Below are positions 12,545-45,446 of a stretch of 57,697 bases of DNA, one piece after another. Every line of letters starts with the position of its first letter. Positions within the stretch are counted from its first letter, which is position 1. The stretch is from Pseudomonadota bacterium (GTDB lineage Bacteria > Bdellovibrionota > FAC87 > UBA2466): positions 1 to 57,697 of the forward strand of contig JAYUGC010000134.1 of the NCBI GenBank assembly GCA_043767805.1, read 5' to 3'. The translations under genes and the position numbers were made by a program. Below the pieces are notes generated by a model that made no database searches, had not been told where the DNA came from, and saw nothing but the letters and a program-made list of their open reading frames with translations.

Positions 12545-12547
12545 CGC

Positions 12548-13562: not shown

Positions 13563-13564
13563 GA

Positions 13565-14343: not shown

Positions 14344-14346
14344 GGT

Positions 14347-15306
14347 TTACCAGCCGAAATTGGGTTTGGTGTGAAAGTGATGAGTCGCGCGGATATCGCG
14401 GATGGTGCCCGTTTCCGAGCGCATCACGACGGAGTGAGTGCGCGCGCCGCCGCCGAAATAATTCACGCCCCGGAGGTAACTGCCATTAGTTACGCCGGTA
14501 CCGATGAACATGACGTTGCCGCGCGCGAGATCGAGCAGGCCGTACACGCGCTTTTCGTCCGTGATGCCCATCTTCTTCGCCCGCCCGCGCTCGTCGTCGT
14601 TTCTAAATTTCAAAACGCCCTGCATGTCGCCGCCGAGGCAACGCAAAGCGGCCGCCGCGATGACGCCTTCGGGAGCGCCGCCGATGCCGATGAGCATGTC
14701 GACGCCCGTGGAATCGTCCGCCGTCGCGATGGCCGCCGAAACGTCGCCGTCGCCGATCAAGCGGATGCGAGCGCCCGACAGGCGCACTTCCTTGATGAGC
14801 TCCGCGTGGCGCTCTCTATCCAAAATGATGACCATCATGTCGGCCACGTCTTTGCCTTTGGCCCGCGCCACTTCCTGGATGTTCCAGGTAGGGCTTCTCG
14901 TGATGTCGATGGCGCCTTTCGCGCGAGGACCGACGGCGATCTTGTCCATGTAGGTGTCGGGGGCGTGGAGGAAGTTGCCCTCTTCCGCGGCCGCGATAAC
15001 CGAGAGCGCTTCGCTGCGCCCCATGGCCGTGATGCTCGTGCCCTCTAAAGGATCGCAGGCGATGTCGATTTTCGGGCCCGACCCCGCGCCGACTTTTTCG
15101 CCGATGTAGAGCATCGGCGCTTCGTCACGCTCGCCCTCTCCGATTTGAATGGTGCCGTCGAACTCGATGGTATCGAACGCTTTCCTCATGGCTTCGACGG
15201 CGGCGTTATCGGCCGCGTCCGCCTCACCACGCCCAATCCAGCGGCCCACCGAAAGGGCGGCCGCTTCAGTCACACGCACGAATTCCAGAGCTAGGTTTCT
15301 ATCCAT
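14347..15306 (-). CDS. glpX: Class II fructose-1,6-bisphosphatase
   Basis: RVTEAAA, IGEGERDEAPMLYIGE, DPLEGT and GGAPEGVIAAAAL. Confidence 0.96.
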   Translation of the reverse strand: MDRNLALEFVRVTEAAALSVGRWIGRGEADAADNAAVEAMRKAFDTIEFDGTIQIGEGERDEAPMLYIGEKVGAGSGPKIDIACDPLEGTSITAMGRSEALSVIAAAEEGNFLHAPDTYMDKIAVGPRAKGAIDITRSPTWNIQEVARAKGKDVADMMVIILDRERHAELIKEVRLSGARIRLIGDGDVSAAIATADDSTGVDMLIGIGGAPEGVIAAAALRCLGGDMQGVLKFRNDDERGRAKKMGITDEKRVYGLLDLARGNVMFIGTGVTNGSYLRGVNYFGGGARTHSVVMRSETGTIRDIRATHHFHTKPNFGW

Positions 15307-15374
15307 TCAACGGTTCTCCTCGCTGACTTTTACCATAGGCAAAAGGGGATGCAAATCAGAGGAACCGTTGAAAG

Positions 15375-15455
15375 AAGGAGAAAATTGGAGAGGTGGATGA
15401 AGAACTGGCAGCTCTTCACCCACCTCTTCGGGGGGTTGGAGGGGTCTCGTTTGCC
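15375..15455 (-). ncRNA. Candidate small RNA (C-rich single-stranded segment plus long terminal hairpin)
   Basis: Minus strand reads CCCCTCCAACCCCCC, then a hairpin GAGGTGGGTGAAGAGCTG/CAGTTCTTCATCCACCTC that pairs fully only on this strand (two G-U), then a pyrimidine run. An ECF-like promoter lies upstream. Confidence 0.4.
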
Positions 15456-15463
15456 TAGATAAC

Positions 15464-15490
15464 GACGAAAGCCGGTCGAAGGGTGTGACG
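15464..15490 (-). promoter_or_regulatory. ECF41-like promoter
   Basis: CGTCACA-N16-CGTC on the minus strand, compared with the ECF41 consensus TGTCACA-n16-CGTC. Confidence 0.4.
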
Positions 15491-15512
15491 GACTCCGTGT
15501 TAAAATTTATCC

Positions 15513-16286
15513 ATGTCCGCCAAAGCTCAACGCACCGGGCCTCAAAACCCAGACGGCTCTTACGCTGAAAAACAACTGCGCTCCCGGGTGCCGCTCCTCA
15601 GATTCAGCCATGGAGCGCGCTTTCGGATGGCCCGGCGTCTAGTGCGTCCTTTCATCGGAAAACGCCTCCTCGATTTCGGCTGCGGCGACGGAACTTTTCT
15701 CGCCTCCCTCCAAAACCTCTTCCCGCGCTCCACGGGCGCGGATCAGGACGCCAACCAGCTCGCCCATTGCCGGAAAATCATGCCGCAAGGTGAGTTCGTG
15801 GAGCCCGGCCGGGTGACCGGCCCATTCGATCTCATCACTTGCATGGAAGTCTTCGAACATTGCCTCGCCGACGAAAGACTCCGGCTTCTCGACGCCTTCT
15901 CGAGCTGGCTCGCCCCCGGCGGCGCGCTCATCATCAGCGTTCCGGTGGAAATCGGCCCGAGCTTACTCATCAAGGAAAGCATGCGGGCGCTGGCCGGCTG
16001 GCTCGGCCAGAAGGATTATCGCCACAAAGAGATCTACCGCTGGAAAGAGCTTTTGACTCAAGTCGGCGCAAACGCCGATACGCAAATCGCACGCCCTGTC
16101 TGGAAGAGCGGCCCGCAGGAAGCGCCCGTGCCCTACCACGGGCACAAAGGGTTCAACTGGATGGCGTTTCAAATCGAGATCGAGCGCCGTTTCACAGTGG
16201 AAAGAGTGACGTTCTCTCCCGTCCCGCGCCTCGGGCGCTGGCTGAACAGCCAGACGTGGTTTGTTTGCCGACCTCGCGAGACTTAA
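15513..16286 (+). CDS. Class I SAM-dependent methyltransferase
   Basis: LLDFGCGDG, FDLITCMEVFEH and LAPGGALIISVP. Confidence 0.88.
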   Translation: MSAKAQRTGPQNPDGSYAEKQLRSRVPLLRFSHGARFRMARRLVRPFIGKRLLDFGCGDGTFLASLQNLFPRSTGADQDANQLAHCRKIMPQGEFVEPGRVTGPFDLITCMEVFEHCLADERLRLLDAFSSWLAPGGALIISVPVEIGPSLLIKESMRALAGWLGQKDYRHKEIYRWKELLTQVGANADTQIARPVWKSGPQEAPVPYHGHKGFNWMAFQIEIERRFTVERVTFSPVPRLGRWLNSQTWFVCRPRET

Positions 16287-16312
16287 CGTATGGTGGGACC
16301 GTGATTACGGAC

Positions 16313-16684
16313 ATGGAAAAGCTATTAAAGCTGCAGAGGGACCGGCGCCGGGATCGGCAACAGGCCACCACTCGCCGCCGGAGAGCGGTTCAAGGCGCGC
16401 CCAAAAAGATGGACAATCTGGTCTCCGAGTTCTTCGGCCACGACCCCGAGGCCGTCCGCCGCATCGAAGAGCATAGGGCCATTCAGGCCTGGGCCGAAGT
16501 CGTGGGCCCCGCCGCCGCCGCCTTCTCCAAAGCCGAGCGCGTGAGAAACCGTCAGCTCGTCATCAAGGTGCGGGACCCGATGTGGCTCCACCAGCTCTAT
16601 CTTTTGAAGAACGAACTACTTCGAAAGTACCGGACGGCGTTTCCGTCCTTAAAGCTCGATGATATTTTTTATACCGGCACCTGA
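16313..16684 (+). CDS. dciA: DciA (DUF721) helicase-loader family protein
   Basis: AWAEVVG...LVIKV.DPMWLHQL..LKNELL pattern. The true start is probably the ATG at 16313, not 15839. Confidence 0.8.
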   Translation: MEKLLKLQRDRRRDRQQATTRRRRAVQGAPKKMDNLVSEFFGHDPEAVRRIEEHRAIQAWAEVVGPAAAAFSKAERVRNRQLVIKVRDPMWLHQLYLLKNELLRKYRTAFPSLKLDDIFYTGT

Positions 16685-17118
16685 ACGCCGGTGCTACCAA
16701 AGCCGCCCACGCCGCGCACGGTCTCGCCCAAGCTGTCCGTCTCCACGAACGCCATCTGATCGACCTTTTGCAGGACTAATTGCGCGATGCGATCGCCCGG
16801 CTGAATGGTCACGGGCTCGGTGCCGAGATTGATGACCAGTACCTTCACTTCCCCGCGGTAATCGCTGTCGATGGTACCCGGCGCGTTCACCACGGTGAGC
16901 CCCTGCTTAAAGGCAAGGCCGCTGCGAGGACGGACCTGAATCTCGAAGCCCAGGGGGATTTCCACGGCAAGGCCTGTGGGGATGGCGTCCCGAGCCGACG
17001 GGGCGAGCACGCGCGGCGTATCGAGGCACGCGGTGACGTCGCAGCCAGCCGCTCCTTCCGACATATAACGCGGGACTTGAGCTTTGGGATCGAGCTTTCG
17101 GACTTTAATGGAAATCAT
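16669..17118 (-). CDS. dut: dUTP diphosphatase
   Basis: AAGCD, RPRSGLA, GTIDSDYRGE, GDRIAQ and RGVGGFGSTG. Confidence 0.96.
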   Translation of the reverse strand: MISIKVRKLDPKAQVPRYMSEGAAGCDVTACLDTPRVLAPSARDAIPTGLAVEIPLGFEIQVRPRSGLAFKQGLTVVNAPGTIDSDYRGEVKVLVINLGTEPVTIQPGDRIAQLVLQKVDQMAFVETDSLGETVRGVGGFGSTGVQVPV

Positions 17119-17185
17119 GACCGTGGAAACTAGATCACAAAGCGCGGGTTGGCAAAGTACCAGGCCCGTGAAACACTTTAGGCCT

Positions 17186-17638
17186 ATGAACAAAAACGGC
17201 ACCCAGACTCCTTCAGGCGTTCAAGAACAGATCCCCGATCGGCAAGGTCCGGCGTCCGTCGCCTTCTCCATCGGCCTCGGAGCGGCGGCCATCGCCGCGC
17301 TGGCGGGGGTGGTGATCTTGTTTTTTCTGATGTTCAAGAAGGAAGCTCAGATGACGAGCGGCCCGGTGACGAGCCCCAACGCTTACCGGCTGTCCCAAGC
17401 GCTCTCCATAGCCGCCAAGGAAAATTCCCTGGAACAAATGGCGTCGCTCCTCGCGGAAGGCGCCGACCCAAATTTCTACGGCAACTGCCATGGCTCGACG
17501 CCTCTCTTTCAGGCGTACCTGACCGGCAATATGGAAGCCATCGAGCTGCTGCGAAAAAACAAAGCAGCCGCCCTCTGCGACGGTTTTCAGAAGCTGCTCA
17601 GAGAGAAGTACGACTGGAAGGAATCCGACTTTCAGTAA
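17186..17638 (+). CDS. Single-TM ankyrin-repeat protein
   Basis: TM segment (IGLGAAAIAALAGVVILFFLMF) followed by LSIAA...LLAEGADPN...GSTPLFQA..GNMEAIELL. Confidence 0.75.
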   Translation: MNKNGTQTPSGVQEQIPDRQGPASVAFSIGLGAAAIAALAGVVILFFLMFKKEAQMTSGPVTSPNAYRLSQALSIAAKENSLEQMASLLAEGADPNFYGNCHGSTPLFQAYLTGNMEAIELLRKNKAAALCDGFQKLLREKYDWKESDFQ

Positions 17639-35030: not shown

Positions 35031-36215
35031 ATGCTTCCCAAGCTAAAGACCGCCCCGCGTCTGAAAGTTCTCTTTTTCGTAGAGGGCTTTACCGACATTC
35101 GCTTCGTCACGGGCCTTTCGGAAATTTGCGATCTCACGCTGGTGGTACCGCAAAGAGCATACGAATCGAGCGGCTTGAAAGAGCGCGTGAACGAGAGCGG
35201 CGCGACTCTCACCCAAATCGAGATCACCGGAAGCCGCCTTCAGTTTCAAGCCAAGAGCTTGAAATGGCTCTGGGACAACTCCGCTCACTTCGACGTCGTT
35301 CTCGCTCAAGAAGTCTTACGGGGCGCCTTCAACGCGACCCTCATTGGGAAATTAAAGGGGGTTCCCGTGGTCACCTACATGGGCATCTCGCCGGTCGAGT
35401 ACTTCCGCTGTCGACGAGAGCGCGGTCAAATTGGCGCGCTGAAAAGCTGGCTCGGAGAGACCACCATCGAGACTCTGATGCGCGCGAACGGACGCATGGC
35501 CACCACTTGCCTCGCTATGGGCCCCTACCTAAAAGACGTCGCCGCGGACTATTGCCCCCGGAGCCAGGTGGGGCTCTATTACGGCGTCGACACGAAATTT
35601 TTCCGTCCGGCGGCGGCCGCCGAAAAGAAGAAGCTGCGCGAAAAGCTCGGGCTTCCTCAAGACAAATTTTTGGTCGTGCTCTCCAGCCGCATCAGCCACG
35701 AGAAAGATCCCGAGACCGCATTGAAAGCCGTGGCGAAAGCCCGGGCCAAGGGACTCGATGTGGCGCTCCTCAATCTGGGAGGCGGGTTCAAGGATTTCCT
35801 CAAGCTCTCCAAAGAGCTGGGGCTTCCCGATGCGACCGACTGGGTCCTGGGCCGCCAAGCGGTACACCCCATGAAAGATCTCGCCGATTATTTCCGTGCG
35901 GCTGACTGCATGATTCAGGCGTCTCTCGCCGAAGGTGCGGCGTTCTCGACCCTCGAGGGGCTTGCCTGCGAAGTGCCAGTCATCGCCACCGACATCGGAG
36001 GCATGGCGGTCCAGCTCCGAGGCGTTGCGCATCTCACCCCGCGCGCCGACAGCGATCGCATGGCCGACAAATTACTCTGGGTCGCTTCCCACAAAGCCGA
36101 GGCGCAAAAGATCTCCACCGAGGGCCGCGCCTACGTGGTGCGGGAATGGGATCGGGAAAAGGCCTTCCGCGATCTCCAGATAATTCTCTCGGATGCCGCC
36201 AGCACCCGCCGTTAA
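35031..36215 (+). CDS. GT4 glycosyltransferase
   Basis: YYGVDT, SRISHEKD and ASLAEGAAFSTLEGLACEVP. Confidence 0.88.
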   Translation: MLPKLKTAPRLKVLFFVEGFTDIRFVTGLSEICDLTLVVPQRAYESSGLKERVNESGATLTQIEITGSRLQFQAKSLKWLWDNSAHFDVVLAQEVLRGAFNATLIGKLKGVPVVTYMGISPVEYFRCRRERGQIGALKSWLGETTIETLMRANGRMATTCLAMGPYLKDVAADYCPRSQVGLYYGVDTKFFRPAAAAEKKKLREKLGLPQDKFLVVLSSRISHEKDPETALKAVAKARAKGLDVALLNLGGGFKDFLKLSKELGLPDATDWVLGRQAVHPMKDLADYFRAADCMIQASLAEGAAFSTLEGLACEVPVIATDIGGMAVQLRGVAHLTPRADSDRMADKLLWVASHKAEAQKISTEGRAYVVREWDREKAFRDLQIILSDAASTRR

Positions 36216-36360
36216 TTCGCCGAAATTAGGCGACCTGCCGTTAACGACGCGTGCGGGAGGGAAAGATCTAATAGACTCCCTCGTACCGGCAACCCGTGTC
36301 CCGTGACTGCCCCGGTCGAGTGCGCGAAAGCGCGGGTCCGAAAGCACGAAAAAAAGCGCC

Positions 36361-36909
36361 TCACTTCTTCGTGACGAGATACACGCTGATCGTCGCCGTT
36401 ATGATGCCCAGAAACGTGGAGAAGATCGAAAGCGTTCGCATGAACGTGTCCACTTTCGGGGGAGAGTCGAGATGGATGACGTCTCCGTTGCGTAAAACCA
36501 TGTCGCGATAACTCACCTGCTCGACCAGCTCCTCGCCGTCGATGCGGACGGTTTTCTGATTCGCGGCGATCTTCGCATCCTTGCTCTCCCGGGTGTCGTA
36601 AATGCGGCTCAGTGAGATTTCCGTCTTGGAGAGAACGCCCGTGCTTCCACCGGAGTAACCGAGGGCATCGAGGAGCGTGGCATTGTCCGGCAGGTAGTAC
36701 ACGCCCGGCGCCGAGACATCCCCCCAGATGTGCACGCGGATCAAGAAACGCTTCTCACGGTTCGACGAGAAAAACTCTCGTACGTTGCCTTCCCCCTGCT
36801 CCTTCGGCGTGATGAGCACCGGCGCTCCGTGCGCGTAGCGGAGGGCTCCCGTATGAGAGACGATGAGAAGCGGCACGAGACTCTGAACTAACCAGCGTGG
36901 GGTTTTCAT
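36361..36909 (-). CDS. Small SLBB-domain polysaccharide export (OPX/Wza-like) protein
   Basis: VHIWGDVSAPGVYYLP...LLDALGYSGG...LRNGDVIHL SLBB fold, N-terminal signal-like segment and C-terminal hydrophobic helix. Confidence 0.8.
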   Translation of the reverse strand: MKTPRWLVQSLVPLLIVSHTGALRYAHGAPVLITPKEQGEGNVREFFSSNREKRFLIRVHIWGDVSAPGVYYLPDNATLLDALGYSGGSTGVLSKTEISLSRIYDTRESKDAKIAANQKTVRIDGEELVEQVSYRDMVLRNGDVIHLDSPPKVDTFMRTLSIFSTFLGIITATISVYLVTKK

Positions 36910-36970
36910 GGTGGTACCTTCATTTTAGCCTAAAGGCGCCGCCGTGAGATACCGCGCGCGGCGTTAACGC

Positions 36971-37915
36971 TCATCCGGCAAACGAACGGCTCATGGCGTA
37001 AGCGAGAGCCTCCCCAAACCGATCCCGCAAGAGCGCCTTCATTCCCAGGTACAGCACGCGAGGAGCGCGGTGTTTTTCTAAAATCAAACGCTCCGGCGAA
37101 AGAGACCGTTCGAGACATTTAGCGACGAGCCAGCCGCCCAGGCCGGCATGCCCGATCCCTTCGGGAACCGGCGTTCCGAAATGCCGCCTGAGCACGGCCG
37201 CCGAAACGGCGACCGCCCGGCGGAGCCTCAAGCGAATGGCGAGCCGCTCGACCGCGGCGACATCCAGGCCTTCCCGCCGGACGAGATGATCGAGATCCAC
37301 GAGCCAATGGAGCTGATCGAAGAGATGCTGAAGCGCCCCGTGCCCGCAGAGATAGACGAAGTTCAAGTTCGTCTCGAACTCGCGGAACCAGTCAACCTCA
37401 GGGATGCAGGAAGCGCGGCTGTGCCAGCGCGAGATGCCTTCGAAATCCCGGCCGGCGAGCATTTGCCGATGGCCTTCCACCGGGACCCCGTCCAGGACGA
37501 AGACCTGACGAAACTCCGTGCCGAGCCAGCTACCTGGATCGCCCGGCTCCGCGCCCAGCCCTTGAAGGACTCTCCCAAAATCACGCCAGCGGTGTTCCGA
37601 CACCAAAATGTCGATGTCCGTGCAGGGCCGGTGCAAGGGGGAATCGTAAATCCGGTAGGCGAGACTCGGCCCTTTCAAAAGCCAGGCCGGAAGCCCCGCC
37701 GCTTTGAACGCCTCATTCAATTTTTTCAAGACGCCGCGAAAAGTCACCTCGCGCACGGCGCGCGAACTCCAAGCTCGTCGACAAACGGCTTCGAGCTCCG
37801 TTCCTTCGACGCCTCCCTTGGCTAACGCCAAAGGACCGAAGGCGGCCGCCCCTTGCGGCGTGGCCAGCCAGTTCCGGAAGGCGGGAGTCCTCATCCAAGT
37901 TTCAAATGGTGTCAC
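36971..37915 (-). CDS. Nucleotidyltransferase (NTP_transf_5-like, RiPP-associated)
   Basis: LLKGPSLA..IY....RPCTDIDILV motif, VEGH and WLVDL. Confidence 0.85.
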   Translation of the reverse strand: MTPFETWMRTPAFRNWLATPQGAAAFGPLALAKGGVEGTELEAVCRRAWSSRAVREVTFRGVLKKLNEAFKAAGLPAWLLKGPSLAYRIYDSPLHRPCTDIDILVSEHRWRDFGRVLQGLGAEPGDPGSWLGTEFRQVFVLDGVPVEGHRQMLAGRDFEGISRWHSRASCIPEVDWFREFETNLNFVYLCGHGALQHLFDQLHWLVDLDHLVRREGLDVAAVERLAIRLRLRRAVAVSAAVLRRHFGTPVPEGIGHAGLGGWLVAKCLERSLSPERLILEKHRAPRVLYLGMKALLRDRFGEALAYAMSRSFAG

Positions 37916-38348
37916 GCCGGACGTTCCCTCTTCCTAGCTGCAGAGCCATTTCGATTAAAGCGAGCGCCTTCAGGCCGACGCGAGCGGGTCGTCCTTTCGG
38001 GCCCGCGCGCATGCGGCGGGAAAACCAGGCCGACCAACGTTTGAGCCCCGGCCCGCGCTCGCCCCACACCACCCGCCAAGCGCCACGCCGAACTCCCAAA
38101 ACCCGGCCCACGAGCGGCGAAGGGGGATCCCATTCGCAAGCCGCGTCTCCTTTGGTGGCGAGCCCGCCGCCCTTGCCCACCACCCGGTGCGCGGACCAAA
38201 CTCGATTGCCTTCGAGGCGGAACGGGCCGGTAACGACCAGGTCCCCTTCCCCTACGAGCGGCGAGTCGCCGAGCTCGACGAGCAAAGCGTCTCCAGGCTT
38301 CAGGAAAGGCACCATGCTCTCACCATGAAAAGAGACCCAGGTAGGCAT
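37902..38348 (-). CDS. Soluble S24/S26-family peptidase (candidate leader peptidase)
   Basis: GESMVPFL (catalytic Ser), SAHRVV and TKGDA. The ATG overlaps the precursor stop (TAATG); no N-terminal TM anchor. Confidence 0.82.
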   Translation of the reverse strand: MPTWVSFHGESMVPFLKPGDALLVELGDSPLVGEGDLVVTGPFRLEGNRVWSAHRVVGKGGGLATKGDAACEWDPPSPLVGRVLGVRRGAWRVVWGERGPGLKRWSAWFSRRMRAGPKGRPARVGLKALALIEMALQLGRGNVRRDTI

Positions 38349-38527
38349 TAGGAGAGAAGTCGGTTGGAGCGACAGAAGTTGGGAGCCCCGAGCGATTCCT
38401 TGCGTCCCCCAACCAAGGAACCGTTGCAGGTGATGGCGGCGCCGTTGACCATCCACTTCTCCGAAACAATCTTCGGCTTCTCGTAAGGAATTTTCTCGGG
38501 CTTCTTGTCTTTGGGGTCGTCGCTCAT
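38348..38527 (-). CDS. Putative RiPP precursor peptide, 59 aa (absent from the ORF track)
   Basis: Manual translation: MSDDPKDKKPEKIPYEKPKIVSEKWMVNGAAITCNGSLVGGRKESLGAPNFCRSNRLLS*. GAGGAG SD, ATGA overlap with the rSAM stop, TAATG overlap with the peptidase start, and a YxxPxI RRE-binding motif. Confidence 0.88.
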   Translation of the reverse strand: MSDDPKDKKPEKIPYEKPKIVSEKWMVNGAAITCNGSLVGGRKESLGAPNFCRSNRLLS

Positions 38528-39555
38528 GCTGTAGTCTCCTCGAAAACTTGGGCGCGGATTTTCGCCGCTTCCGCCGCGTAAGGAATCACTTTCAAAGGAT
38601 CGCGAAGCTCATTTCTCGCCATGCCGGGACAATGCTCGCAAAGGCCGGCGGCGTTGCCCTTCGGCATGCCCGACAAATCGCCGAGTCTCAGATCTCTCCA
38701 TTTGAGTGCGATCTCATTTCCCCAGAGCTCGGCGAAAGACGATTCCGTGAGAAGCCCGAGCGGCTCCCGCACTTCAATGCAGGGGAGCAGCTCTCCGTAG
38801 GCGGTGACCGCGCACTTCGCCTTTCCGACGCCGCAGGTATGGTGCTCGAGCGTAGTCGCCTCGGGCTCGCGAGCCCGCCCCGCTCGCCTGGCCTGCTCAC
38901 GATAGTAGACGAGAAGCTGTTCCGGAGTCGCTCTCTGGCGAGTCGGCGCCATATCGCCGCTGAACTTCGCGGTGACCACGGGATCGGCTTGCATGGGAAG
39001 CGATCGCTCCGCGCACCAGGCTTCAAGATCGAAGTAGCCGTCGATATTTTCCCGGGTGAGCAAAGTATTGATGGTCACGCCGAGGCCCGCCTCTTTGGCG
39101 AACTCGATGGCCCGCACCAGACGGGCATGGGAGCCCGCGACCGCGGTCATCCGATCGTGCACGGCCGAGTCGGTGCTATAGAGACTGATGGTCAGATAAG
39201 AAAATCCCGTTCGCTTCAAACGAAACGCGGCCGCTCGATCTATTTTCAAAGCGTTGGTGATCATCGACAACGAGAAGCCCAGCCCCGCCGCATACTCGGC
39301 GATGGCCCAAAACTCCGGGTGGAGCATGGCTTCGCCGCCCATCAAGACGACGTAGAGCACTCCCGCGCCGCGAATTTCCCGTAGGACATGCTTCCACTGA
39401 TCCAGAGTAAGCTTTCGCTCGGGATCGTCTTTAAACGAGTCGAGATAACAGTGCGTGCAACGCTCGTTGCAGCGATAAGTAAGCTCCAGGGAAGCCTTCA
39501 TGGGTCTTGCCTTGAGGAGACTGTGATCTCCCCATTTGTCGAGCAAGGCGCTCAT
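38524..39555 (-). CDS. Radical SAM enzyme with SPASM/twitch-type C-terminal domain (PqqE-like)
   Basis: ELTYRCNERCTHCY (CxxxCxxC), MGGEA, CGVGKAKC...GELLPC and CEHCPG. Confidence 0.93.
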   Translation of the reverse strand: MSALLDKWGDHSLLKARPMKASLELTYRCNERCTHCYLDSFKDDPERKLTLDQWKHVLREIRGAGVLYVVLMGGEAMLHPEFWAIAEYAAGLGFSLSMITNALKIDRAAAFRLKRTGFSYLTISLYSTDSAVHDRMTAVAGSHARLVRAIEFAKEAGLGVTINTLLTRENIDGYFDLEAWCAERSLPMQADPVVTAKFSGDMAPTRQRATPEQLLVYYREQARRAGRAREPEATTLEHHTCGVGKAKCAVTAYGELLPCIEVREPLGLLTESSFAELWGNEIALKWRDLRLGDLSGMPKGNAAGLCEHCPGMARNELRDPLKVIPYAAEAAKIRAQVFEETTA

Positions 39556-39824
39556 TCGGCTACTTCCACCAGCCCCAACTCTTTCAATTCCATTTCAAAG
39601 GCGAGCATGTCGGCCGAGGCGGTCGCTTCATCCACGTCAAAGGTTTCACTCAGGCGCCGAATGAGAGTCTCGCGAGGGAGCTGCCCATCGAGCCGCTCCC
39701 AAATCCAGGTTCCCGCGCGGTTGCACTCATGAACGAGATCGCGCCCGGGATTGAGTAAGACAGCGACTCCTTCGAAGGTCTGCCACCCCACGCCGAGCGC
39801 GCGCTTCAAGCCGTATTCAGCCAT
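39552..39824 (-). CDS. PqqD-family RiPP recognition element (RRE)
   Basis: 90 aa; AVLL...HECNRAGTWIWERLDG...LSETFDVD.ATASADM..F...L...GLV. Confidence 0.9.
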   Translation of the reverse strand: MAEYGLKRALGVGWQTFEGVAVLLNPGRDLVHECNRAGTWIWERLDGQLPRETLIRRLSETFDVDEATASADMLAFEMELKELGLVEVAE

Positions 39825-40704
39825 CGATGACCCTCCAAAAATCCGCGTCTCTGCGAAACGAAAGCTCGAAGCCCGGCACTTGGCGCACGAGCTGCACCAA
39901 GCGCTCCATCAAAGCGGAAGCTAACGACGAGTCGGAAAGTAAGAACGTGTGCACGAGCGCCCGGGCGAGTTCGCCCGGGCCGAGCGCGCGCACCTGCACT
40001 TCACTGGATTGCCGGAGCCAATAAAACCCCGCGAGCGGCGCCGGCTTATCGATTCTATCCCTGTCAAAGCGCGCCTGGCCGAGCAGCGCCGGCTCGACGG
40101 TGGCGCCGAGCTCTCCCACCCGGATCAAATTAATGTCGTCTCCCAAAACCACGCGGTTTCCGGCAAACGAAGCGATGGTGGATTTCCCCGCGCCGGAGTG
40201 GCCGAGAAACACGTGCGCCCTTCCGTCATTCCCGATCACGGCCGCCGAATGCGCCACGAGCGCGCCCCGAGAGAGCAACGCGGGAGGCAGAAACCAGCGG
40301 AGCGCATTGAAGAGCCCATCGGAGCTGTCGGCCTTCGCCGCAATCACCGCTTCGCGCGGGCTCAAACGGCGCGCGACGAAATCGCGCTGGAGCACCATAT
40401 CGCCACGCACTTCAAAGCCCGGATCGGGATCTTCGTCGAACTCGACGTCGCCTCCGGTCCAGAGGCGATGAGCGTCCTGCCAATGGAGCGAAAGCGCCGG
40501 CTCGGCCTCGCGAAGCCAAGCCATCGGTAAACGTCCCCGCGCGAACTCGAGCGAGGCCCGGTGGTCGAAGGCAAAACGGAGGGGCACGCCATGATACAGG
40601 CAATAAAAATGCGGCGCGGACCCGAGCGGCGTCAGGTGCTGCGCGAGCTTGCGCTTACCCGGGCGAGAGGACGCTTCGGGAAGTCGAATAATTTCCGGCA
40701 CCAA
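39817..40704 (-). CDS. HprK-related kinase (P-loop; ScmC/PadeK-like)
   Basis: AHSAAV, GHSGAGKSTIA (Walker A) and VLGDD motifs of the HPr-kinase superfamily. Start is TTG 40704 or GTG 40701. Confidence 0.8.
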   Translation of the reverse strand: MVPEIIRLPEASSRPGKRKLAQHLTPLGSAPHFYCLYHGVPLRFAFDHRASLEFARGRLPMAWLREAEPALSLHWQDAHRLWTGGDVEFDEDPDPGFEVRGDMVLQRDFVARRLSPREAVIAAKADSSDGLFNALRWFLPPALLSRGALVAHSAAVIGNDGRAHVFLGHSGAGKSTIASFAGNRVVLGDDINLIRVGELGATVEPALLGQARFDRDRIDKPAPLAGFYWLRQSSEVQVRALGPGELARALVHTFLLSDSSLASALMERLVQLVRQVPGFELSFRRDADFWRVIDG

Positions 40705-40790
40705 ACCATTATAGGCGGGGCGGGCTCAAGATACTAATGCGACGCATCACACACCTTCATCCCAAACCGTTTTTAAGCCGAAACGTAGGG

Positions 40791-41846
40791 GTGAGGACCC
40801 AGTTAATATCATGGATCTTAATCGCGCTGCCAACGTGGGCTCACGCCCGCGAGCCCTCGATTTCCGACTGGATCGCCCATCTTGGTCTCGATTCTTGTGC
40901 CACCCACTACCCATCGCTCATGCCCTCGAGCCCGCTGGCGGAAGCCGTTCGTTCTTCCTGGGGCGGGAAAAAGCATTTACCGCTCGATCCCGAAATTGAA
41001 ATCTTACGGCGGGTAAACTTCGAGGATTGGGCGCAAATTCCTAGCAGCTCTCGCCAGAGGCTCTTCGGCGATGAGAGCATCAAGGCCTGGCAGAACGCCA
41101 AGCAGTTTGCCGAAGCTCACGCAAGCGACGCGGAACTCGGGCCGGATCTACTGAAAAAAATGCATTTGCTCGCCCTCGAAGGTCATTACTTCGCCGGTTA
41201 TGAGCGGCGCCGGATCCAGCACGCCACCCAGCAAGGAAAACTTTCCGCCAGCGCGGGCATGAAACTTCTCGAGGAAATAAAGGAAGGGCAAAAGCCCCTT
41301 CCTTCCGGAACCGATCACAGAAGTCTGCGGGGCGTTTTTCGCAAAGATCCTTTGGATGCTTTCGTGCAAAACGGCAGGCATGTCCTTCCCAACGGCTCCC
41401 GCTATTTTACAGCGTCCGAGTTGGCTCAGATCAGGAAAAACCCGTTCTTGAAAGTGGACGAGGGCTCCTTCAAGGACATCGGCGAAGGCAGGTTTACCGG
41501 CAACGTCCATTTCGTAGCTCCCGCGGAATTGGAAAAAGCCGTGAACAGCGTCTTCAAAACTCTCGAGACGGATCTCAAGGGCGCCAAAGACGATCTAGCC
41601 AAGATAAGCGCCATCGTCCGGTTCCGAAGAGAGATGCTTACCATCCATCCGTTCCTGGACGGCAACGGCCGCTCGATACGGCTCTTTGCGGACTTGCTCT
41701 ACTTACGCCATGGCTTTCCGCCGCCGCTGACGTTTCACGAGAACGATCTCATCATCAGCCAGGAAGAGGATGTGAAGAGCACGTTAATCGGAATGCAACT
41801 CTACCTGATGGCTCTCGATAAAAAGGCCTCTACCGAAAAACGCTAA
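40791..41846 (+). CDS. Fic-domain protein with a predicted signal peptide
   Basis: Canonical motif HPFLDGNGRSIR. From GTG 40791 the N-terminus reads MRTQLISWILIALPTWAHA/RE (AxA site); alternative start at 40737. Confidence 0.85.
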   Translation: MRTQLISWILIALPTWAHAREPSISDWIAHLGLDSCATHYPSLMPSSPLAEAVRSSWGGKKHLPLDPEIEILRRVNFEDWAQIPSSSRQRLFGDESIKAWQNAKQFAEAHASDAELGPDLLKKMHLLALEGHYFAGYERRRIQHATQQGKLSASAGMKLLEEIKEGQKPLPSGTDHRSLRGVFRKDPLDAFVQNGRHVLPNGSRYFTASELAQIRKNPFLKVDEGSFKDIGEGRFTGNVHFVAPAELEKAVNSVFKTLETDLKGAKDDLAKISAIVRFRREMLTIHPFLDGNGRSIRLFADLLYLRHGFPPPLTFHENDLIISQEEDVKSTLIGMQLYLMALDKKASTEKR

Positions 41847-43112: not shown

Positions 43113-45446
43113 TCAGCGACCGCCGCGGAAGCCTCCGCCGCCGCCTCCGCGTCCACCGCCACCGCCGCGTCCGCCGCGATCTCCGCCGCCGCCACGACCA
43201 CCACGGAAGCCACCGCCTCCGCCGCTGCCGCCACGACCGCCGCGATCTCCACCGCCGCTACCGCCGCCGTATCCGCCGCCGCCTTCACCGCGGCCACCGC
43301 CACCGCCCTGGTCTTCCGACCCAGGAGGCGGTCCTTCCGAACCGTCATTGGGGAGGAGCGCTTTGCGGGATAGACGAATCTTGCCCTGAGGATCGACCTC
43401 GAGACATTTCACCTGAACGATGTCGCCTTCTTTGACGATGTCGTCCACCTGGCGGACCCGGTAATGGGCCAGCTCTGAAATGTGGCAAAGGCCATCCGTT
43501 CCGGGAATGATTTCGATGAACGCACCGAAATCGGCGATACGGGTAACCCGGCCTTCGTAGATTTTGCCTGGCTCGGGCTCTTCCGTGATCTGGTTGATGA
43601 TGTTCATCGCCTTCTGCGCGCTTTCGCCGTCAGAGGAAGCGATGTGAATCGTGCCGTCGTCTTCGATATCGATCTTAACGCCCGTGCGCTCGATGATGCT
43701 GCGAATAACCTTACCGCCCGACCCGATGACTTCGCGGACTTTGTCCGGGCGCACTTTCATGGTGAAGATGCGCGGCGAGTACTTGGAGAGCTCCGGCTGA
43801 TGCACGGAGATGGTTTTCGCCATCTCGCCGAGAATATGGAGCCGGCCTTCTTTAGCTTGGTCGAGGGCTTGTTCCATAATCTCGCGGCTGACGCCCGCGA
43901 TCTTAAGATCCATCTGGAACGCGGTGATACCGTCCGCCGTTCCGCACACTTTGAAGTCCATGTCTCCGAGATGATCCTCGTCGCCGAGAATGTCGGAAAG
44001 AACGGCGACTTTATCGCCTTCCTTGATGAGCCCCATCGCTACGCCCGCGACGGGCTTGGTAATCGGAACGCCGGCATCCATTAGCGCCATGGAACCGCTA
44101 CATACGGTCGCCATGGAAGAGGAGCCGTTCGACTCGAGGACTTCCGCCACCAAGCGAATGGTGTAGGGGAAAACTTCTTTCGACGGCACTACGTAGGAAA
44201 GCGCGCGCTCGGCGAGAACGCCGTGGCCGATTTCCCGGCGCCCTGGCGGCCGAAGCGGACGGGCTTCACCCACCGAGAACGGGGGGAAGTTGTAGTGCAG
44301 GAGAAACGTCTTCTGATACTGCCCGGCCAAAGCGTCAATCTTCTGCTCGTCGTCTTTGGTGCCGAGGGTAACCGTCGACAAGACTTGAGTCTCACCGCGC
44401 GTAAAGAGCGAGGAGCCGTGCACGCGGGGCAAGAGGCGGACTTCGCTCGAGATGGGGCGAATCTTGTTGTAAGCGCGTCCGTCGATGCGGGCTTTCGTAT
44501 CCAAGGTGAGCTCACGGGCGAAAGTCGCCTTCAGCTCTTCGAGGTACGTGCTAACGAGCTTGTTACGCGCGTTGTCTTCCGCCGTCTTGGGCTCGGCATT
44601 GGCGAACTTTTCCTTCGCGAGTTTCTTCACTTTATCGAGTGCGTTGTAACGCTCGAGTTTTTCGCGAACCGCGAAGGCGGTTTTGAAGGAAGGCCAGAGA
44701 GCCTCCTTCATTTTCGCCTTCATCGACTCGTCCCGAAGCGGCTTCGGGTAATCGCGCTTGGCCTTATTGCCGGTCTTGGCGCGCAAATCTTCCTGGAGCT
44801 GGAGAATGGGCTGAATCGCCTTGCGAGCGAACTCGAGGGCGTCCACCATTTCTTTTTCGGAAACTTCTTTAGAGAGGCCTTCCACCATCACGATGCCGTC
44901 TTTGATACCGGACACGATGATGTCCAACCGGCTGTCGACCAGCTGCTCGGGCGTCGGATTGGCGATGTACTGGCCATCGATGAGACCGATGCGCAGGCTT
45001 CCCACGGGACCCGCGAACGGAATGTCCGACATGTGCAGACAAGCCGAGGTGGCGATAGAGCCGAGAAGGCCGGGCTCGTTCACTCCGTCGTGAGACAGAA
45101 TGGTCACGGTCACGTTCGTCTCGTGCATGTAATCTTCAGGAAAGAGCGGCCGCATGGGCCGGTCGATAAGCCGTGCGGTGAGTGCCGCCATATCTGGCGG
45201 CTTCGCTTCGCGCTTGAAGAACCCGCCGGGGATACGGCCCGCGGCGTAAAACTTTTCTTGGTAGTCTACCGTGAGGGGGAAGAAATCCTGATTTTCCTTG
45301 GCGGTCTTCGCGGAGCAAATCGCGACGAGGACTGCGGTCTCACCACAACGGGCGAGAATGGACGCGTCGGCCTGCTTGGCCATCTTCCCGGTCTCAAGCG
45401 TTAATACACCTGCCCCGTAATCGACACTTAGTTCAATGACAGACAT
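43113..45446 (-). CDS. pnp: Polyribonucleotide nucleotidyltransferase with a Gly/Arg-rich tail
   Basis: FFPLTVDY, RREIGHG, SNGSSSMA, EDHLGDMDFKV, KH and S1 domains. Confidence 0.98.
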   Translation of the reverse strand: MSVIELSVDYGAGVLTLETGKMAKQADASILARCGETAVLVAICSAKTAKENQDFFPLTVDYQEKFYAAGRIPGGFFKREAKPPDMAALTARLIDRPMRPLFPEDYMHETNVTVTILSHDGVNEPGLLGSIATSACLHMSDIPFAGPVGSLRIGLIDGQYIANPTPEQLVDSRLDIIVSGIKDGIVMVEGLSKEVSEKEMVDALEFARKAIQPILQLQEDLRAKTGNKAKRDYPKPLRDESMKAKMKEALWPSFKTAFAVREKLERYNALDKVKKLAKEKFANAEPKTAEDNARNKLVSTYLEELKATFARELTLDTKARIDGRAYNKIRPISSEVRLLPRVHGSSLFTRGETQVLSTVTLGTKDDEQKIDALAGQYQKTFLLHYNFPPFSVGEARPLRPPGRREIGHGVLAERALSYVVPSKEVFPYTIRLVAEVLESNGSSSMATVCSGSMALMDAGVPITKPVAGVAMGLIKEGDKVAVLSDILGDEDHLGDMDFKVCGTADGITAFQMDLKIAGVSREIMEQALDQAKEGRLHILGEMAKTISVHQPELSKYSPRIFTMKVRPDKVREVIGSGGKVIRSIIERTGVKIDIEDDGTIHIASSDGESAQKAMNIINQITEEPEPGKIYEGRVTRIADFGAFIEIIPGTDGLCHISELAHYRVRQVDDIVKEGDIVQVKCLEVDPQGKIRLSRKALLPNDGSEGPPPGSEDQGGGGGRGEGGGGYGGGSGGGDRGGRGGSGGGGGFRGGRGGGGDRGGRGGGGGRGGGGGGFRGGR

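Follow-up and report, generated by a model that had tools for sequence, protein, structure and literature searches.

Two groups of phosphopeptide pathways come closest to the locus described here, six genes within a 57,697-nt stretch of DNA (the window). Linear polyphosphorylated peptides (LPP) of Bacillota (LppA/K/B/S/D/N; Popov et al., Nat Commun 2026;17:6633, PMC13381572) are made by an HprK-like kinase, an RRE, an SpI-like peptidase and a PF14907 protein encoded in capsule loci, and the functions of LppK, LppS and LppB, in phosphorylation and leader cleavage, were demonstrated by experiment. Cleavage of the LPP leader follows T-1, the Tyr+15 position of the motif YxxPxVLxHQxIxFET↓xxS, F-3 matters to LppS cleavage, and phosphorylation falls on core Ser3, not on a terminal Ser; LppN was inactive in a heterologous host, the supplement assigns lppN and pbaN to PF14907, and the authors describe LPP as confined to Bacillota (PMC13381572). 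In the paeninodin and pseudomycoidin lasso clusters, an HprK-like kinase (PadeK or PsmK) acts on a precursor ending in Ser, PsmK phosphorylating this C-terminal residue, and the PF14907-type "NTP transferase" PsmN is needed for the addition of 162-Da hexose units on the phosphate (PMC6993621), as the original prediction had correctly stated. The B1-type RRE of phosphorylated lasso peptides recognises [Y/W]xxP.

A further resemblance is to SynChlorMet (ScmC TIGR04249, ScmD TIGR04248, ScmE/ScmF TIGR04250/04251), which combines an HprK-related protein, a PqqD-family chaperone and radical SAM (rSAM)/SPASM enzyme(s), and to GeoRSP (TIGR04302/04303), grouped with it for the same trio logic. To our knowledge, both are bioinformatic definitions without characterised products, and a literature search for these names gave only unrelated SCMC papers among the matches listed. 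Members of the cassette family matched ScmC (E 2.4e-3 in the window, 8.5e-8 in locus L022), ScmD (1.1e-5) and ScmE (2.2e-19), but the scores lay far below the cutoffs (ScmC, 17.3 bits against 125; ScmD, 25.5 against 100; ScmE, 69.6 against 400; GeoRSP rSAM, 100.9 against 400), and the window cassette has one rSAM gene, not two.

Direct reading of the window sequence located six minus-strand ORFs at 36971-40704, all junctions overlapping and a small precursor gene lying between those of the rSAM enzyme and the peptidase, as predicted (Table 1). From kinase to nucleotidyltransferase, the overlaps were 8 nt (ATGGCTGA), 4 nt (ATGA), 4 nt (ATGA), 1 nt (TAATG) and 14 nt, the last two values hinging on the start codons picked; the longest ORF of the S26-like peptidase starts from GTG at 38456. 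Overlapping gene junctions are commonplace in operons, and the cassette stands above chance because the whole of it, including the small ORF, is conserved in other genomes. Pfam scans of window ORFs of at least 150 aa revealed neither an asparagine-synthase-like lasso cyclase nor a transglutaminase-like B2 protein, and likewise no further pqq gene, ABC transporter or dedicated exporter, all of which the original prediction had reported as absent. Unlike the phosphorylated lasso clusters, the window has a serine peptidase and an rSAM enzyme in place of the lasso cyclase and B2 cysteine protease. The scans also delimited a polysaccharide locus of about 19 kb (17.6-36.9 kb of the window), with 11 glycosyltransferases, a Polysacc_synt_3 flippase-like protein, a Wzz-domain protein, an FkbM methyltransferase and an SLBB export gene, and the cassette was situated at its end, again as predicted. 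Synteny of the SLBB gene was found only in the closest relative, L004 (72.5% identity), and its membership of the six-gene operon is uncertain.

Table 1. Predicted genes of the cassette and the adjoining SLBB gene (window positions)
Predicted product	Position	Strand	Length and start	Remarks
PEPCK/HprK-fold P-loop peptide kinase	39817..40704	-	295 aa, TTG start	Alternative GTG one codon later
Discrete PqqD-type RRE	39552..39824	-	90 aa	PF05402 E 7.7e-14
Radical SAM enzyme, reduced SPASM domain	38524..39555	-	343 aa	PF04055 E 9.6e-25, PF13186 E 2.3e-5
Precursor peptide	38348..38527	-	59 aa	Lys-rich leader, PYEKPKI motif; conserved homologues
Archaeal/ER-type signal-peptidase-I-like (S26B) putative leader peptidase	37902..38348	-	148 aa from ATG	
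PF14907 (NTP_transf_5) nucleotidyltransferase-fold tailoring enzyme	36971..37915	-	314 aa, GTG start	PF14907 E 1.5e-30
SLBB-domain polysaccharide-export-like gene	36361..36909	-		PF10531 E 5.9e-7; 61 nt downstream of cassette

Loci for comparison were retrieved via the rSAM enzyme, those of other phyla being the 35 with a strong rSAM match. Profile HMM scans of 18 Bdellovibrionota loci detected the kinase in 18, the rSAM enzyme in 18, the S26-like peptidase in 17, the PF14907 protein in 16, the precursor in 16 and the RRE in 14; the corresponding counts for the 35 other loci were kinase 28, RRE 28, precursor 27, Peptidase_C25 26, S26-like peptidase 25 and PF14907 3. The small ORF expected in homologous cassettes was thus found in most of them, in Bdellovibrionota, Chloroflexota and Acidobacteriota, and the usual gene order was kinase-RRE-rSAM in one direction. 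A second cassette copy was located on contig C23 of the source genome. No RRE was detected within the DNA retrieved for the Bdellovibrionota loci L005, L009, L011 and L015, and the RRE may therefore be dispensable or encoded elsewhere.

The precursor gene, preceded by GAGGAG 8 nt upstream of its ATG, encodes a peptide with no Pfam or NCBIfam match. Among 27 aligned precursors from three phyla, Y15 and P18 (the YxxP leader motif), C34, C52 and the C-terminal S59 were invariant, and Ala was present at Tyr+15 in 26; the predicted core, AITCNGSLVGGRKESLGAPNFCRSNRLLS, comprises residues 31-59. Residue -3 was F or Y in 14 of 17 Bdellovibrionota precursors, whereas the window's precursor has Asn at this position and two extra residues ahead of the first Cys, and therefore the cut site is least certain for the window's own copy. 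Comparison with L004 revealed 22 codons with synonymous differences only and 10 with nonsynonymous ones, 26 of the 42 nucleotide differences being at third positions. A profile search of the whole library gave 351 representative clusters at E<=1e-3. The best 150 of these 351 included 149 under 120 aa, which ended in Ser (128) or Thr (13) and carried [YW]xxP in 147 cases, 140 of the latter having exactly two Cys past the predicted cut and 128 having Ala at +15, counts with some circularity for Y, P and C, since the profile itself encodes them, the sole independent part being that the last profile position coincided with the protein end. Judged by these sequence features, the small ORF truly encodes a precursor, and the locus is very probably a genuine RiPP cassette with a 59-aa precursor.

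A family profile of 16 RRE sequences matched the lasso RRE TbiB1 (1.9e-15), LppB (9x8z_B, 1.3e-12), TfuB1 (4e-10), PbaB1 (6.4e-10) and true PqqD (6.8e-9). Co-folding of the RRE with the precursor scored 0.48 versus 0.00 for the best control, a result graded as weak support, with at least 73% of contacts agreeing among runs and a partner pLDDT of at least 50. Among the 157 solved complexes 116 attained this mark, as did 2 of 215 mismatches; only 18 of the solved complexes, but both mismatches, passed at <=0.60. Since solved RRE-leader complexes exist, the pass may reflect likeness to them.

The kinase contains the P-loop GHSGAGKST, and G168, S170, G171, G173, K174, T176 and D189 were invariant across 22 homologues. 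Its AlphaFold2 model (pLDDT 92.7) aligned with PEPCK over 256 residues (Z 14.2, rmsd 5.3) and, within residues 147-295, with four HprK/P chains over 115-117 residues (Z 9.4-10.0, rmsd 2.9-3.3), the next unrelated structure having a Z of 4.8; the NCBIfam matches, HprK_rel_A/B and ScmC, were weak (E about 2e-3) and below cutoffs. By analogy, it seems fairly likely that this kinase acts on the terminal Ser of the precursor. In the peptidase, S11, M12, H54, R55, G67 and D68 were invariant in 22 homologues, S11/H54/D68 corresponding to the LppS triad S29/H68/D93. The best solved relatives of its profile were SEC11C (3.4e-8) and SEC11A (5.7e-8), with bacterial SPase I at 2.6e-3, and TIGR02228 was matched below cutoff in the window (E 1.7e-4) and above it by the L038 orthologue (64.5 bits versus 51.85). 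This S26-like enzyme is probably the leader peptidase. Residues K81, G82, D100, D102, E147 and H149 of the nucleotidyltransferase were invariant in 18 homologues, and, given such invariant catalytic motifs, the enzymes look intact.

The window cassette and LPP clusters thus have in common a kinase, a discrete RRE, an archaeal-type SpI-like Ser/His/Asp peptidase and a PF14907 protein, the likeness of LppK, LppS and LppN to the window enzymes being at family or profile level only. Both have a YxxPx[VLI] leader with a small residue at Tyr+15, the LppS cut position, most of the Bdellovibrionota precursors also share F at -3, and both are found at capsule/EPS loci. However, an rSAM/SPASM enzyme is constant in window-type cassettes, while the words "radical" and "SPASM" have 0 occurrences in the LPP main text (PMC13381572). 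Window-type precursors have a short core in which two Cys and the C-terminal Ser are invariant, in contrast to the variable, Ser3-phosphorylated LPP cores, and they do not conserve the HQxIxFET stretch of the LPP motif. An MsbA-like exporter is missing from the window, and the cassettes belong to Bdellovibrionota, Chloroflexota and Acidobacteriota, not Bacillota. None of the cassette parts is claimed by a curated NCBIfam model, and literature searches found no description of an rSAM-containing cassette. The original statement that no characterised product has this enzyme set therefore holds for the rSAM-containing form, but LPP already uses the kinase, RRE, SpI-like peptidase and PF14907 set. 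What is new here is a conserved rSAM enzyme and a two-Cys, Ser-terminated core joined to LPP-type enzymes in several phyla outside Bacillota.

We consider the six genes to be a RiPP maturation operon, related to LPP and paeninodin-type phosphopeptide pathways but containing an rSAM enzyme, with a probability of roughly 0.7. The observations cover gene content, conservation, catalytic motifs, folds and features of the precursor, and from them we infer all chemical steps and their order by homology and conservation. The discrete RRE would bind the precursor through the leader motif P-Y-E-K-P-K-I, and the rSAM/SPASM enzyme would then modify the core near C34 and C52, most likely with sactionine- or ranthionine-type thioethers. 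The HprK-fold kinase would phosphorylate a hydroxyl, most likely that of the invariant Ser59 after the example of PadeK and PsmK in lasso peptides, and might do so more than once, and the PF14907 enzyme may put a further group on the phosphate, a hexose by the PsmN precedent. Finally, the Ser/His signal-peptidase-I-like protease, aided by the RRE, would cut after Ala30 (Tyr+15) to release a 29-residue core, the predicted ruler being the same as in LPP. For the non-lasso RiPP originally proposed, the RRE-delivered precursor, the rSAM enzyme, the HprK-like kinase, the PF14907 protein and the signal-peptidase-fold protease are well supported in silico; the crosslinking is a proposal from homology.

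The rSAM reaction can be read in more than one way. The enzyme has the motif CNERCTHC (C29/C33/C36), and C241, C248, C259, C306 and C309 are conserved, whereas in the CxxCx5CxxC block the first Cys is absent in 19/19 and the second in 18/19 Bdellovibrionota enzymes, both being present in 32/32 members from other phyla. The two missing Cys are what we take to be ligands of the second auxiliary cluster in anSME-type SPASM structures, and with this reduced set the Bdellovibrionota enzymes may catalyse a chemistry other than that of the full SPASM thioether synthases. Sactipeptide and ranthipeptide maturases (SkfB, AlbA, StsB and CteB/PapB type) likewise pair an rSAM/SPASM-type enzyme and an RRE with a short Cys-containing core, and thioether chemistry is proposed from them, but in the window the RRE is a protein of its own and not an N-terminal domain (the radical SAM motif begins at residue 29), and the kinase, PF14907 and SpI-like partners are foreign to those pathways. 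The window enzyme reached no NCBIfam cutoff, scoring 106.9 bits against 500 for AhbD, 92.6 against 265 for MftC and 87.7 against 381 for PqqE, in addition to the GeoRSP and ScmE values above, so that it fell outside every curated cofactor or RiPP model compared. The same cassette and precursor could instead serve a chemistry other than Cys thioether formation, candidates being crosslinking through a C-C or C-O bond, epimerisation, oxidation of the Cys-to-formylglycine type or, close to the C-terminus, an MftC-like reaction, in which case the two Cys would make a disulfide or bind metal. This is suggested by the reduced Cys set, by a C-terminal residue as conserved as the Cys, by curated-model likenesses led by AhbD, NirJ, MftC, GeoRSP and PqqE rather than sactisynthases, and by the L038 enzyme, which aligned with MftC over nearly its full length (144.7 bits). 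On the other hand, L038 also matched the StsB sactipeptide maturase model (139 bits), the sactisynthase SkfB ranked second among solved relatives by sequence (E 7.2e-15), and, apart from the terminal Ser, no core side chain but those of the two Cys is invariant across three phyla, exactly two Cys being retained in 140 of the 147 library matches among the best 150 of 351 clusters. The scores with AhbD, MftC, AlbA (60.6 bits for the window enzyme), SkfB and StsB do not discriminate, because all are far below cutoffs. We regard thioether formation as tentative, its chances falling somewhat short of even, and a non-thioether reaction as rather unlikely.

Two other explanations concern the cassette as a whole. 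That it is an ordinary LPP cluster with an unrelated rSAM neighbour, or that the small ORF arose by chance, could be argued from four of the five enzymes matching the LPP core set and from the unmatched precursor, but is very improbable: the kinase accompanies the rSAM enzyme in 18/18 Bdellovibrionota and 28/35 other loci (all found via rSAM), the window rSAM gene overlaps both neighbours by ATGA, the small ORF has synonymous-biased substitutions relative to L004 and 351 library relatives, and the LPP paper describes variable cores that lack the two-Cys, terminal-Ser pattern. The mature peptide as a cell-surface component, bearing sugars or polysaccharide on a phosphorylated C-terminal Ser or exported by the machinery of the neighbouring locus, would fit the abutting polysaccharide locus with its same-strand SLBB gene, the lack of a dedicated exporter in the window, the PsmN-dependent hexosylation of phosphate, the capsule loci that also enclose LPP and paeninodin clusters of Bacilli, and the up-regulation of lppB in synchrony with an EPS gene. 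Glycosyltransferase genes occurred in 7/18 other Bdellovibrionota loci (8/19 with the window), a moderate enrichment over the 14% of 5000 random 13-kb windows of the source genome, although related loci are not independent samples. We know of no linkage chemistry for this enzyme set. Moreover, only 5/38 loci of other phyla had a glycosyltransferase match, about baseline, with a profile built from the window's enzymes that may be less sensitive there, and the second cassette on contig C23 had none, so that the predicted conjugation to or export with the polysaccharide appears improbable. A further point against it is that 6/19 Bdellovibrionota loci have their own ABC ATPase gene adjoining the cassette, five of them together with an ABC-2 permease gene.

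Six consecutive minus-strand ORFs were read from the sequence, with an overlap at every junction (see the table), and the radical SAM gene is translationally coupled to both of its neighbours through these overlaps. In Pfam searches the cassette matched PqqD (E 7.7e-14), Radical_SAM (9.6e-25) together with SPASM (2.3e-5), and NTP_transf_5/PF14907 (1.5e-30); the small ORF and the peptidase matched nothing, and the kinase matched PEPCK_ATP alone, slightly under the threshold. With NCBIfam, the kinase gave weak matches (E about 2e-3) to the HprK_rel_A/B and ScmC models, the sole match of the peptidase was the archaeal-type signal peptidase I model TIGR02228 (1.7e-4), and the radical SAM protein matched many radical SAM/SPASM models, each far below its curated cutoff; no curated NCBIfam model was reached by the cassette parts, apart from the generic archaeal signal peptidase I model for one orthologue (Chloroflexota locus L038). 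The cassette is followed, after 61 nt, by the SLBB export gene of a polysaccharide locus. Beyond the kinase gene comes first a Fic-domain gene running divergently, then a set of housekeeping genes (M16 peptidase, PNPase, TruB and IF-2). A promoter and terminator scan of positions 36000–41200 gave one promoter-like and six terminator-like sites, not above shuffled sequence. The stretch was present in the DNA reads of four runs from one sediment-metagenome study, possibly including the source run itself, and there was no RNA dataset among the matching read sets listed.

Features of the cassette, its surroundings and related loci
Feature	Position	Strand	Remarks
HprK-fold kinase	39817–40704	minus	8-nt overlap with RRE gene, ATGGCTGA
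PqqD-type RRE	39552–39824	minus	4-nt overlap with radical SAM gene, ATGA
Radical SAM/SPASM enzyme	38524–39555	minus	4-nt overlap with small ORF, ATGA
Small ORF (predicted precursor, 59 aa)	38348–38527	minus	1-nt overlap with peptidase gene, TAATG, if the peptidase start is the ATG at 38348
S26-like peptidase	37902–38348	minus	14-nt overlap with nucleotidyltransferase gene
PF14907 nucleotidyltransferase	36971–37915	minus	GTG start at 37915
Polysaccharide locus	17.6–36.9 kb		11 glycosyltransferases, flippase-like gene, Wzz-domain gene, FkbM methyltransferase, SLBB export gene (Pfam)
Fic/DOC-domain protein	40737–41846	plus	PF02661, E 1.6e-9; divergent, 32 nt from kinase start
PNPase	43113–45446	minus	Gly/Arg tail at 43113–43330
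Second cassette, same genome (contig C23, locus L061)	about 5150–17260	both	
RRE-like/PF14907-like pair, same genome (contig C71)	58867–60912	plus	
Peptidase_C25, locus L038	7638–10787		
Peptidase_C25, locus L039	7445–10531		
Peptidase_C25, locus L042	7267–10182		

Judged from its sequence conservation, the small ORF is the precursor peptide. Set against its counterpart in L004, the closest relative, it shows 22 synonymous and 10 non-synonymous codon changes, with third positions making up 26 of the 42 nucleotide differences, and a clear Shine-Dalgarno sequence precedes the ATG both in the window (GAGGAG) and in the homologue examples checked. Its homologues shift position (downstream of the radical SAM gene, upstream of the kinase gene, or on the opposite strand) yet remain with the cassette, and two tandem, nearly identical precursor genes were located downstream of the radical SAM gene in three Chloroflexota loci (L034, L038 and L052). 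When 27 precursors of three phyla were aligned, Tyr15, Pro18, Cys34, Cys52 and the C-terminal Ser59 were the sole residues beyond Met1 that never vary; Tyr15 and Pro18 form a YxxP leader motif that comes after a Lys-rich stretch. A profile search of a 1.84-billion-cluster library gave 351 relatives at E≤1e-3, 25 of them at E≤1e-10, and among the best 150 of the 351, 149 were shorter than 120 aa. Of these 149, 147 carried [YW]xxP, and of the 147, 140 had two Cys, no more and no fewer, beyond the predicted cut site and 128 had Ala at Tyr+15, the Y, P and C counts being partly circular because the profile itself favours these residues. The C-terminal residue of the 149 was Ser in 128, Thr in 13 and another in 8, and this count is independent since the profile does not encode the protein end.

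As a single sequence, the RRE found only TfuB1 in the PDB, at E 0.49, and a profile search was needed; a profile of 16 family RREs matched the solved chains of TbiB1 (1.9e-15), LppB (9x8z_B, 1.3e-12), TfuB1 (4e-10), PbaB1 (6.4e-10) and PqqD (6.8e-9), being closer to lasso-type RREs and LppB than to true PqqD. Co-folding of the RRE with the precursor (ESMFold2, with alignments) scored 0.48 against 0.00 for the best control, a pass classed as 'weak support'. Of 157 solved complexes 116 attain the mark, as do 2 of 215 mismatches; the passes that score no higher than 0.60 comprise just 18 of the 157 together with both mismatches, and the present pass may reflect likeness because RRE-leader complexes have been solved. 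The runs agreed in at least 73% of contacts, with a partner pLDDT of at least 50.

For the kinase, the P-loop GxSGxGK[ST] and D189 were invariant in 22 homologues. Its AlphaFold2 model (pLDDT 92.7) matched PEPCK with Z 14.2 and rmsd 5.3 Å over 256 residues, and residues 147–295 matched four HPr kinase/phosphorylase chains with Z 9.4–10.0 and rmsd 2.9–3.3 Å over 115–117 residues (VIA-align), unrelated rows standing at Z 4.8 or less. The HPr kinase/phosphorylase matches surfaced in the VIA-align search alone, the Foldseek matches listed being all PEPCK, and the kinase profile searched against PDB sequences gave nothing but generic P-loops and the P-loop region of PEPCK among the best 60 of 180 matches. 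In the peptidase, S11-M12, H54-R55 and G67-D68 were invariant in 22 homologues; the best solved relatives of its profile were the eukaryotic SEC11C and SEC11A catalytic subunits (3.4e-8 and 5.7e-8) versus 2.6e-3 for bacterial signal peptidase I, and the L038 orthologue passed TIGR02228 (64.5 bits; cutoff 51.85). The peptidase is thus of the Ser/His (S26B) type. The PF14907 transferase had K81-G82, D100, D102, E147 and H149 invariant in 18 homologues, and its family profile gave no match to PDB sequences.

Examination of 51 radical SAM sequences showed that CX3CX2C, C241, C259, C306 and C309 are invariant. The CxxCx5CxxC block had its two leading Cys in 32 of 32 non-Bdellovibrionota members, whereas they were found in 0/19 and 1/19 Bdellovibrionota members, and C248 was in 19/19 Bdellovibrionota enzymes versus 6/32 of the others. 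By analogy with anSME-type SPASM structures, we take the missing pair to be ligands of the second auxiliary cluster. A single auxiliary cluster with full Cys ligation is probably left in the Bdellovibrionota clade, to which the enzyme of the window belongs, and the full-SPASM enzymes of other phyla and these reduced-SPASM enzymes, acting on similar cores, offer a natural comparison for auxiliary-cluster function. The two invariant Cys, together with the auxiliary-cluster Cys of the enzyme, are compatible with a Cys thioether to an alpha-, beta- or gamma-carbon, of the sactipeptide/ranthipeptide type. The reaction of the radical SAM enzyme is the main uncertainty of the proposed pathway.

Two familiar settings for these domains were considered and rejected. 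One is a characterised cofactor pathway (PQQ, mycofactocin or heme d1/heme b). The radical SAM protein does share similarity with the curated models for AhbD, NirJ, MftC, GeoRSP, PqqE, StsB and AlbA, but this similarity is non-discriminating and far below every cutoff: 87.7 bits against 381.35 for PqqE (TIGR02109) and 92.6 against 265 for MftC (TIGR03962), with 26 against 46 for the PqqD model. The companion genes of these pathways are absent from the window, where Pfam scans of ORFs of at least 150 aa gave no pqq gene other than the PqqD-like one. Comparison with PqqE, SynChlorMet and GeoRSP models had been proposed with the original prediction as a check, and the cutoffs of the latter two were likewise missed (ScmC 17.3 against 125, ScmD 25.5 against 100, ScmE 69.6 against 400 and ScmF 58.4 against 400 bits; GeoRSP radical SAM 100.9 against 400 and GeoRSP PqqD-family 22.2 against 100 bits). 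The other setting is a lasso cluster; the same Pfam scans gave neither an asparagine-synthetase-like macrolactam cyclase (C) nor a transglutaminase-like B2 protein. The genes reported as missing in the original prediction (lasso cyclase, B2 protease, further pqq genes and ABC transporter) are thus indeed absent from the scanned ORFs.

Relatives were collected by a back-translated pattern scan with the radical SAM protein over species-representative genomes, giving 147 pattern matches, of which 59 were confirmed, at 57 distinct loci. By their titles, the closest loci (46–75% identity) are Bdellovibrionales and Pseudobdellovibrionaceae MAGs, and those at 28–35% are mostly Chloroflexota and Acidobacteriota. 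Profile HMMs from the aligned families were then scanned over all fetched loci, which had been found via the radical SAM gene. Among 18 Bdellovibrionota loci, the kinase and the radical SAM enzyme were each found in 18, the S26-like peptidase in 17, PF14907 in 16, the small ORF in 16 and the RRE in 14; the loci in which the ORF, peptidase or transferase was missed include the short contigs L010 and L014 and, for the transferase, L009. Among 35 other-phyla loci with a strong radical SAM match (3 of 38 were left out for want of one), the kinase and the RRE were each found in 28, the small ORF in 27, the S26-like peptidase in 25, PF14907 in only 3 and a Peptidase_C25 protein of about 1000 aa in 26, some misses lying at contig ends (L029, L031 and L046 begin with the radical SAM gene). 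Conservation of the small ORF among homologous cassettes, on which the original prediction had staked itself beforehand, is borne out by these counts. Two loci, L049 (Ruminococcus) and L050 (Muribaculaceae), had none of the partner genes, and their radical SAM proteins probably belong to a different family. No discrete RRE was detected in the fetched DNA of L005, L009, L011 and L015, where its absence is genuine because kinase and radical SAM genes abut; these four form a Bdellovibrionota subclade in which the precursor lies upstream on the opposite strand, with the YxxP motif still kept. From the partner counts, the core is therefore kinase, RRE, radical SAM enzyme, precursor and signal peptidase I (SpI)-like peptidase, and the sixth member, by gene content, is one that alternates between PF14907 (Bdellovibrionota and some Acidobacteriota) and a C25 protease (Chloroflexota and others).

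Within the phylum, the radical SAM gene was found at E≤1e-60 in 24 of 401 sampled genomes (17 of 204 genera), and its distribution is patchy. A 5.8-billion-protein index gave 210 relatives at E≤1e-20, the 120 listed bearing generic names only. It was also noticed that the window's own genome has a second, diverged cassette on contig C23, whose radical SAM protein is 47% identical to that of the window; PF14907, the S26-like peptidase, a 56-aa precursor and the kinase are on the minus strand, the RRE and radical SAM genes are on the plus strand, and a giant Peptidase_C25-like ORF then reaches the contig end. Proteins of this gingipain family, roughly 1000–1500 aa with a propeptide domain, are the usual cassette neighbour outside Bdellovibrionota (L023–L058) and adjoin 5 of the 18 Bdellovibrionota loci, among them L005, L011, L015 and L016. 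Between its two Cys every precursor carries a conserved Lys/Arg (GGRK or NGK), which is a possible cut site. Contig C71 of the same genome carries a weakly RRE-like ORF (E 2.2e-5) with a PF14907-family-like ORF (E 1.8e-21) immediately behind it; the profiles of this family gave no kinase, radical SAM or precursor match nearby, and the pair may belong to a different RRE-dependent system.

The nearest described system is that of the linear polyphosphorylated peptides (LPP), defined in May 2026 in Bacillota, to which their authors called them restricted, with clusters situated within capsular polysaccharide loci (Popov et al., Nat Commun 2026, PMC13381572). As described there, the core set comprises LppS (a SpI-like peptidase of archaeal type), LppB (a discrete RRE), LppK (an HprK-like kinase), LppN (annotated PF14907 in the supplement) and an MsbA-like pump; leaders carry the motif YxxPxVLxHQxIxFETxxS, core Ser3 is polyphosphorylated by LppK, LppS (S29/H68/D93) cleaves after T-1 with LppB required and F-3 mattering, LppN was silent in the heterologous host, and the final product and role are unknown according to the authors. 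In the window, the peptidase is likewise archaeal-type and SpI-like, with S11, H54 and D68 set against S29/H68/D93; the RRE is discrete and of the lasso-B1/LppB kind; the kinase is HprK-like by fold and by its invariant P-loop and Asp, a likeness to LppK at the family level; and a PF14907 enzyme is present, as with lppN. Thus four of the five enzymes of the window correspond to the LPP core set. In contrast, the MsbA-like pump is absent, no ABC transporter domain being found in window ORFs of at least 150 aa, and whereas the LPP core set has no crosslinking or cyclising enzyme, a radical SAM/SPASM enzyme is in every fetched locus (the loci having been found via it), flanked by the kinase in 18/18 Bdellovibrionota and 28/35 other-phyla loci. 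The main text of PMC13381572 has no mention of 'radical', 'SPASM', 'Bdellovibrio' or 'Chloroflex'; a few members of the present family may sit unnoticed in its dataset, because the supplementary 'Total domain matrix' of 199 SpI neighbourhoods has columns for Radical_SAM, TIGR04545 and Peptidase_C25.

A common ruler could be applied to both leaders. T-1 of LPP is the 15th residue past the motif Tyr, and that position is Ala in 26 of the 27 aligned precursors (Val in one); YxxP is invariant, Tyr+5 is I/V/L/F in 26/27, and the HQxIxFET part of the LPP motif is unconserved. We therefore predict RRE-assisted cleavage after Ala30, which would leave AITCNGSLVGGRKESLGAPNFCRSNRLLS as the core in the window. 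The -3 residue is Phe or Tyr in 14 of 17 Bdellovibrionota precursors; the window and L004 precursors have Asn at -3 and two extra residues before the first Cys, which makes the window copy the least typical. As for the terminal Ser, the account of pseudomycoidin on which the original prediction drew proved correct as described in PMC6993621: PsmK adds one to three phosphates to the C-terminal Ser; the phosphate can carry one or two hexose units of 162 Da, and these require the uncharacterised NTP transferase PsmN.

The original prediction also placed the cassette beside a polysaccharide locus and suggested conjugation to, or export with, its product. The glycosyltransferase-rich locus does adjoin the cassette (Pfam). 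Using profiles that derive from GT4 and GT2 genes of the window itself and whose sensitivity may be lower in other phyla, a glycosyltransferase match was found in 7 of 18 other Bdellovibrionota loci (8/19 with the window) versus 5 of 38 other-phyla loci; the baseline was 14% of 5000 random 13-kb windows from the same genome, and related loci are non-independent samples in this enrichment. The second cassette of the genome, on C23, had no match with the same profiles. An ABC ATPase was located beside the cassette in 6 of 19 Bdellovibrionota loci, five of these also with an ABC-2 permease. By the locus counts, a real association thus exists, moderate in strength and limited to a single phylum, and it echoes the capsule/EPS-locus setting reported for Bacilli (PMC13381572). 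Conjugation of the peptide to the polysaccharide, or export with it, stays speculation.

From gene content, conservation, motifs and folds we infer the following pathway. The RRE would bind the YxxP leader of the precursor; the radical SAM enzyme would then modify the two-Cys core, most likely with thioether crosslinks; the kinase would phosphorylate the invariant terminal Ser/Thr; the PF14907 enzyme would decorate the phosphate; and the SpI-like peptidase would cut the leader off. On the gene content, LPP/paeninodin-type tailoring is here combined with a radical SAM enzyme, the precursor being distinctive and the kinase/RRE/peptidase/PF14907 module already known from LPP, and the resulting hybrid chemistry, crosslinked plus phospho(glyco)sylated, is probably new. 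Our broadest reading, to which we give a probability of only about 0.1, is a RiPP class that spans phyla, with at least 351 precursor clusters, in which the two-Cys core is crosslinked by the radical SAM enzyme and the phosphorylated C-terminal Ser/Thr serves as a phosphate-borne attachment point for sugars or the polysaccharide of the adjacent locus, the peptide being covalently joined to, priming or capping EPS, and in which the finishing step falls, in the other phyla, to a gingipain-type C25 protease instead of the nucleotidyltransferase.

A full-text literature search, which did not extend to most subscription journals, gave no description of an HprK-like kinase together with a radical SAM/SPASM enzyme in a RiPP cluster, and for the SynChlorMet and GeoRSP names only unrelated 'SCMC' papers were among the matches listed. 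The main text of a compendium of about 15,000 RiPP radical SAM enzymes (PMC10288494) does not mention kinase, HPr, Bdellovibrio, nucleotidyltransferase, signal peptidase or Chloroflex. The operon places the LPP recognition/kinase/peptidase/PF14907 module well outside Bacillota, united with a radical SAM enzyme, and gives entry to the unexplained, recurring link of such peptides with capsule or EPS loci. Since precursor conservation gives sharp predictions (a cut 15 residues past the leader Tyr, two Cys modified and the terminal Ser/Thr phosphorylated), the cassette would be a tractable entry to this chemistry, to the PF14907 reaction and to the capsule/EPS link.

Two observations concern the flank beyond the kinase gene. 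The Fic/DOC-domain protein has a hydrophobic, signal-like N-terminus and weak NCBIfam matches to XopAC/AnkX-type Fic models, far below cutoffs; L004 has no counterpart at that position, the M16 peptidase gene lying there immediately before the kinase gene. In addition, the PNPase carries a C-terminal tail of about 70 residues, nearly all Gly and Arg in RGG-like repeats, which is unusual among bacterial PNPases.
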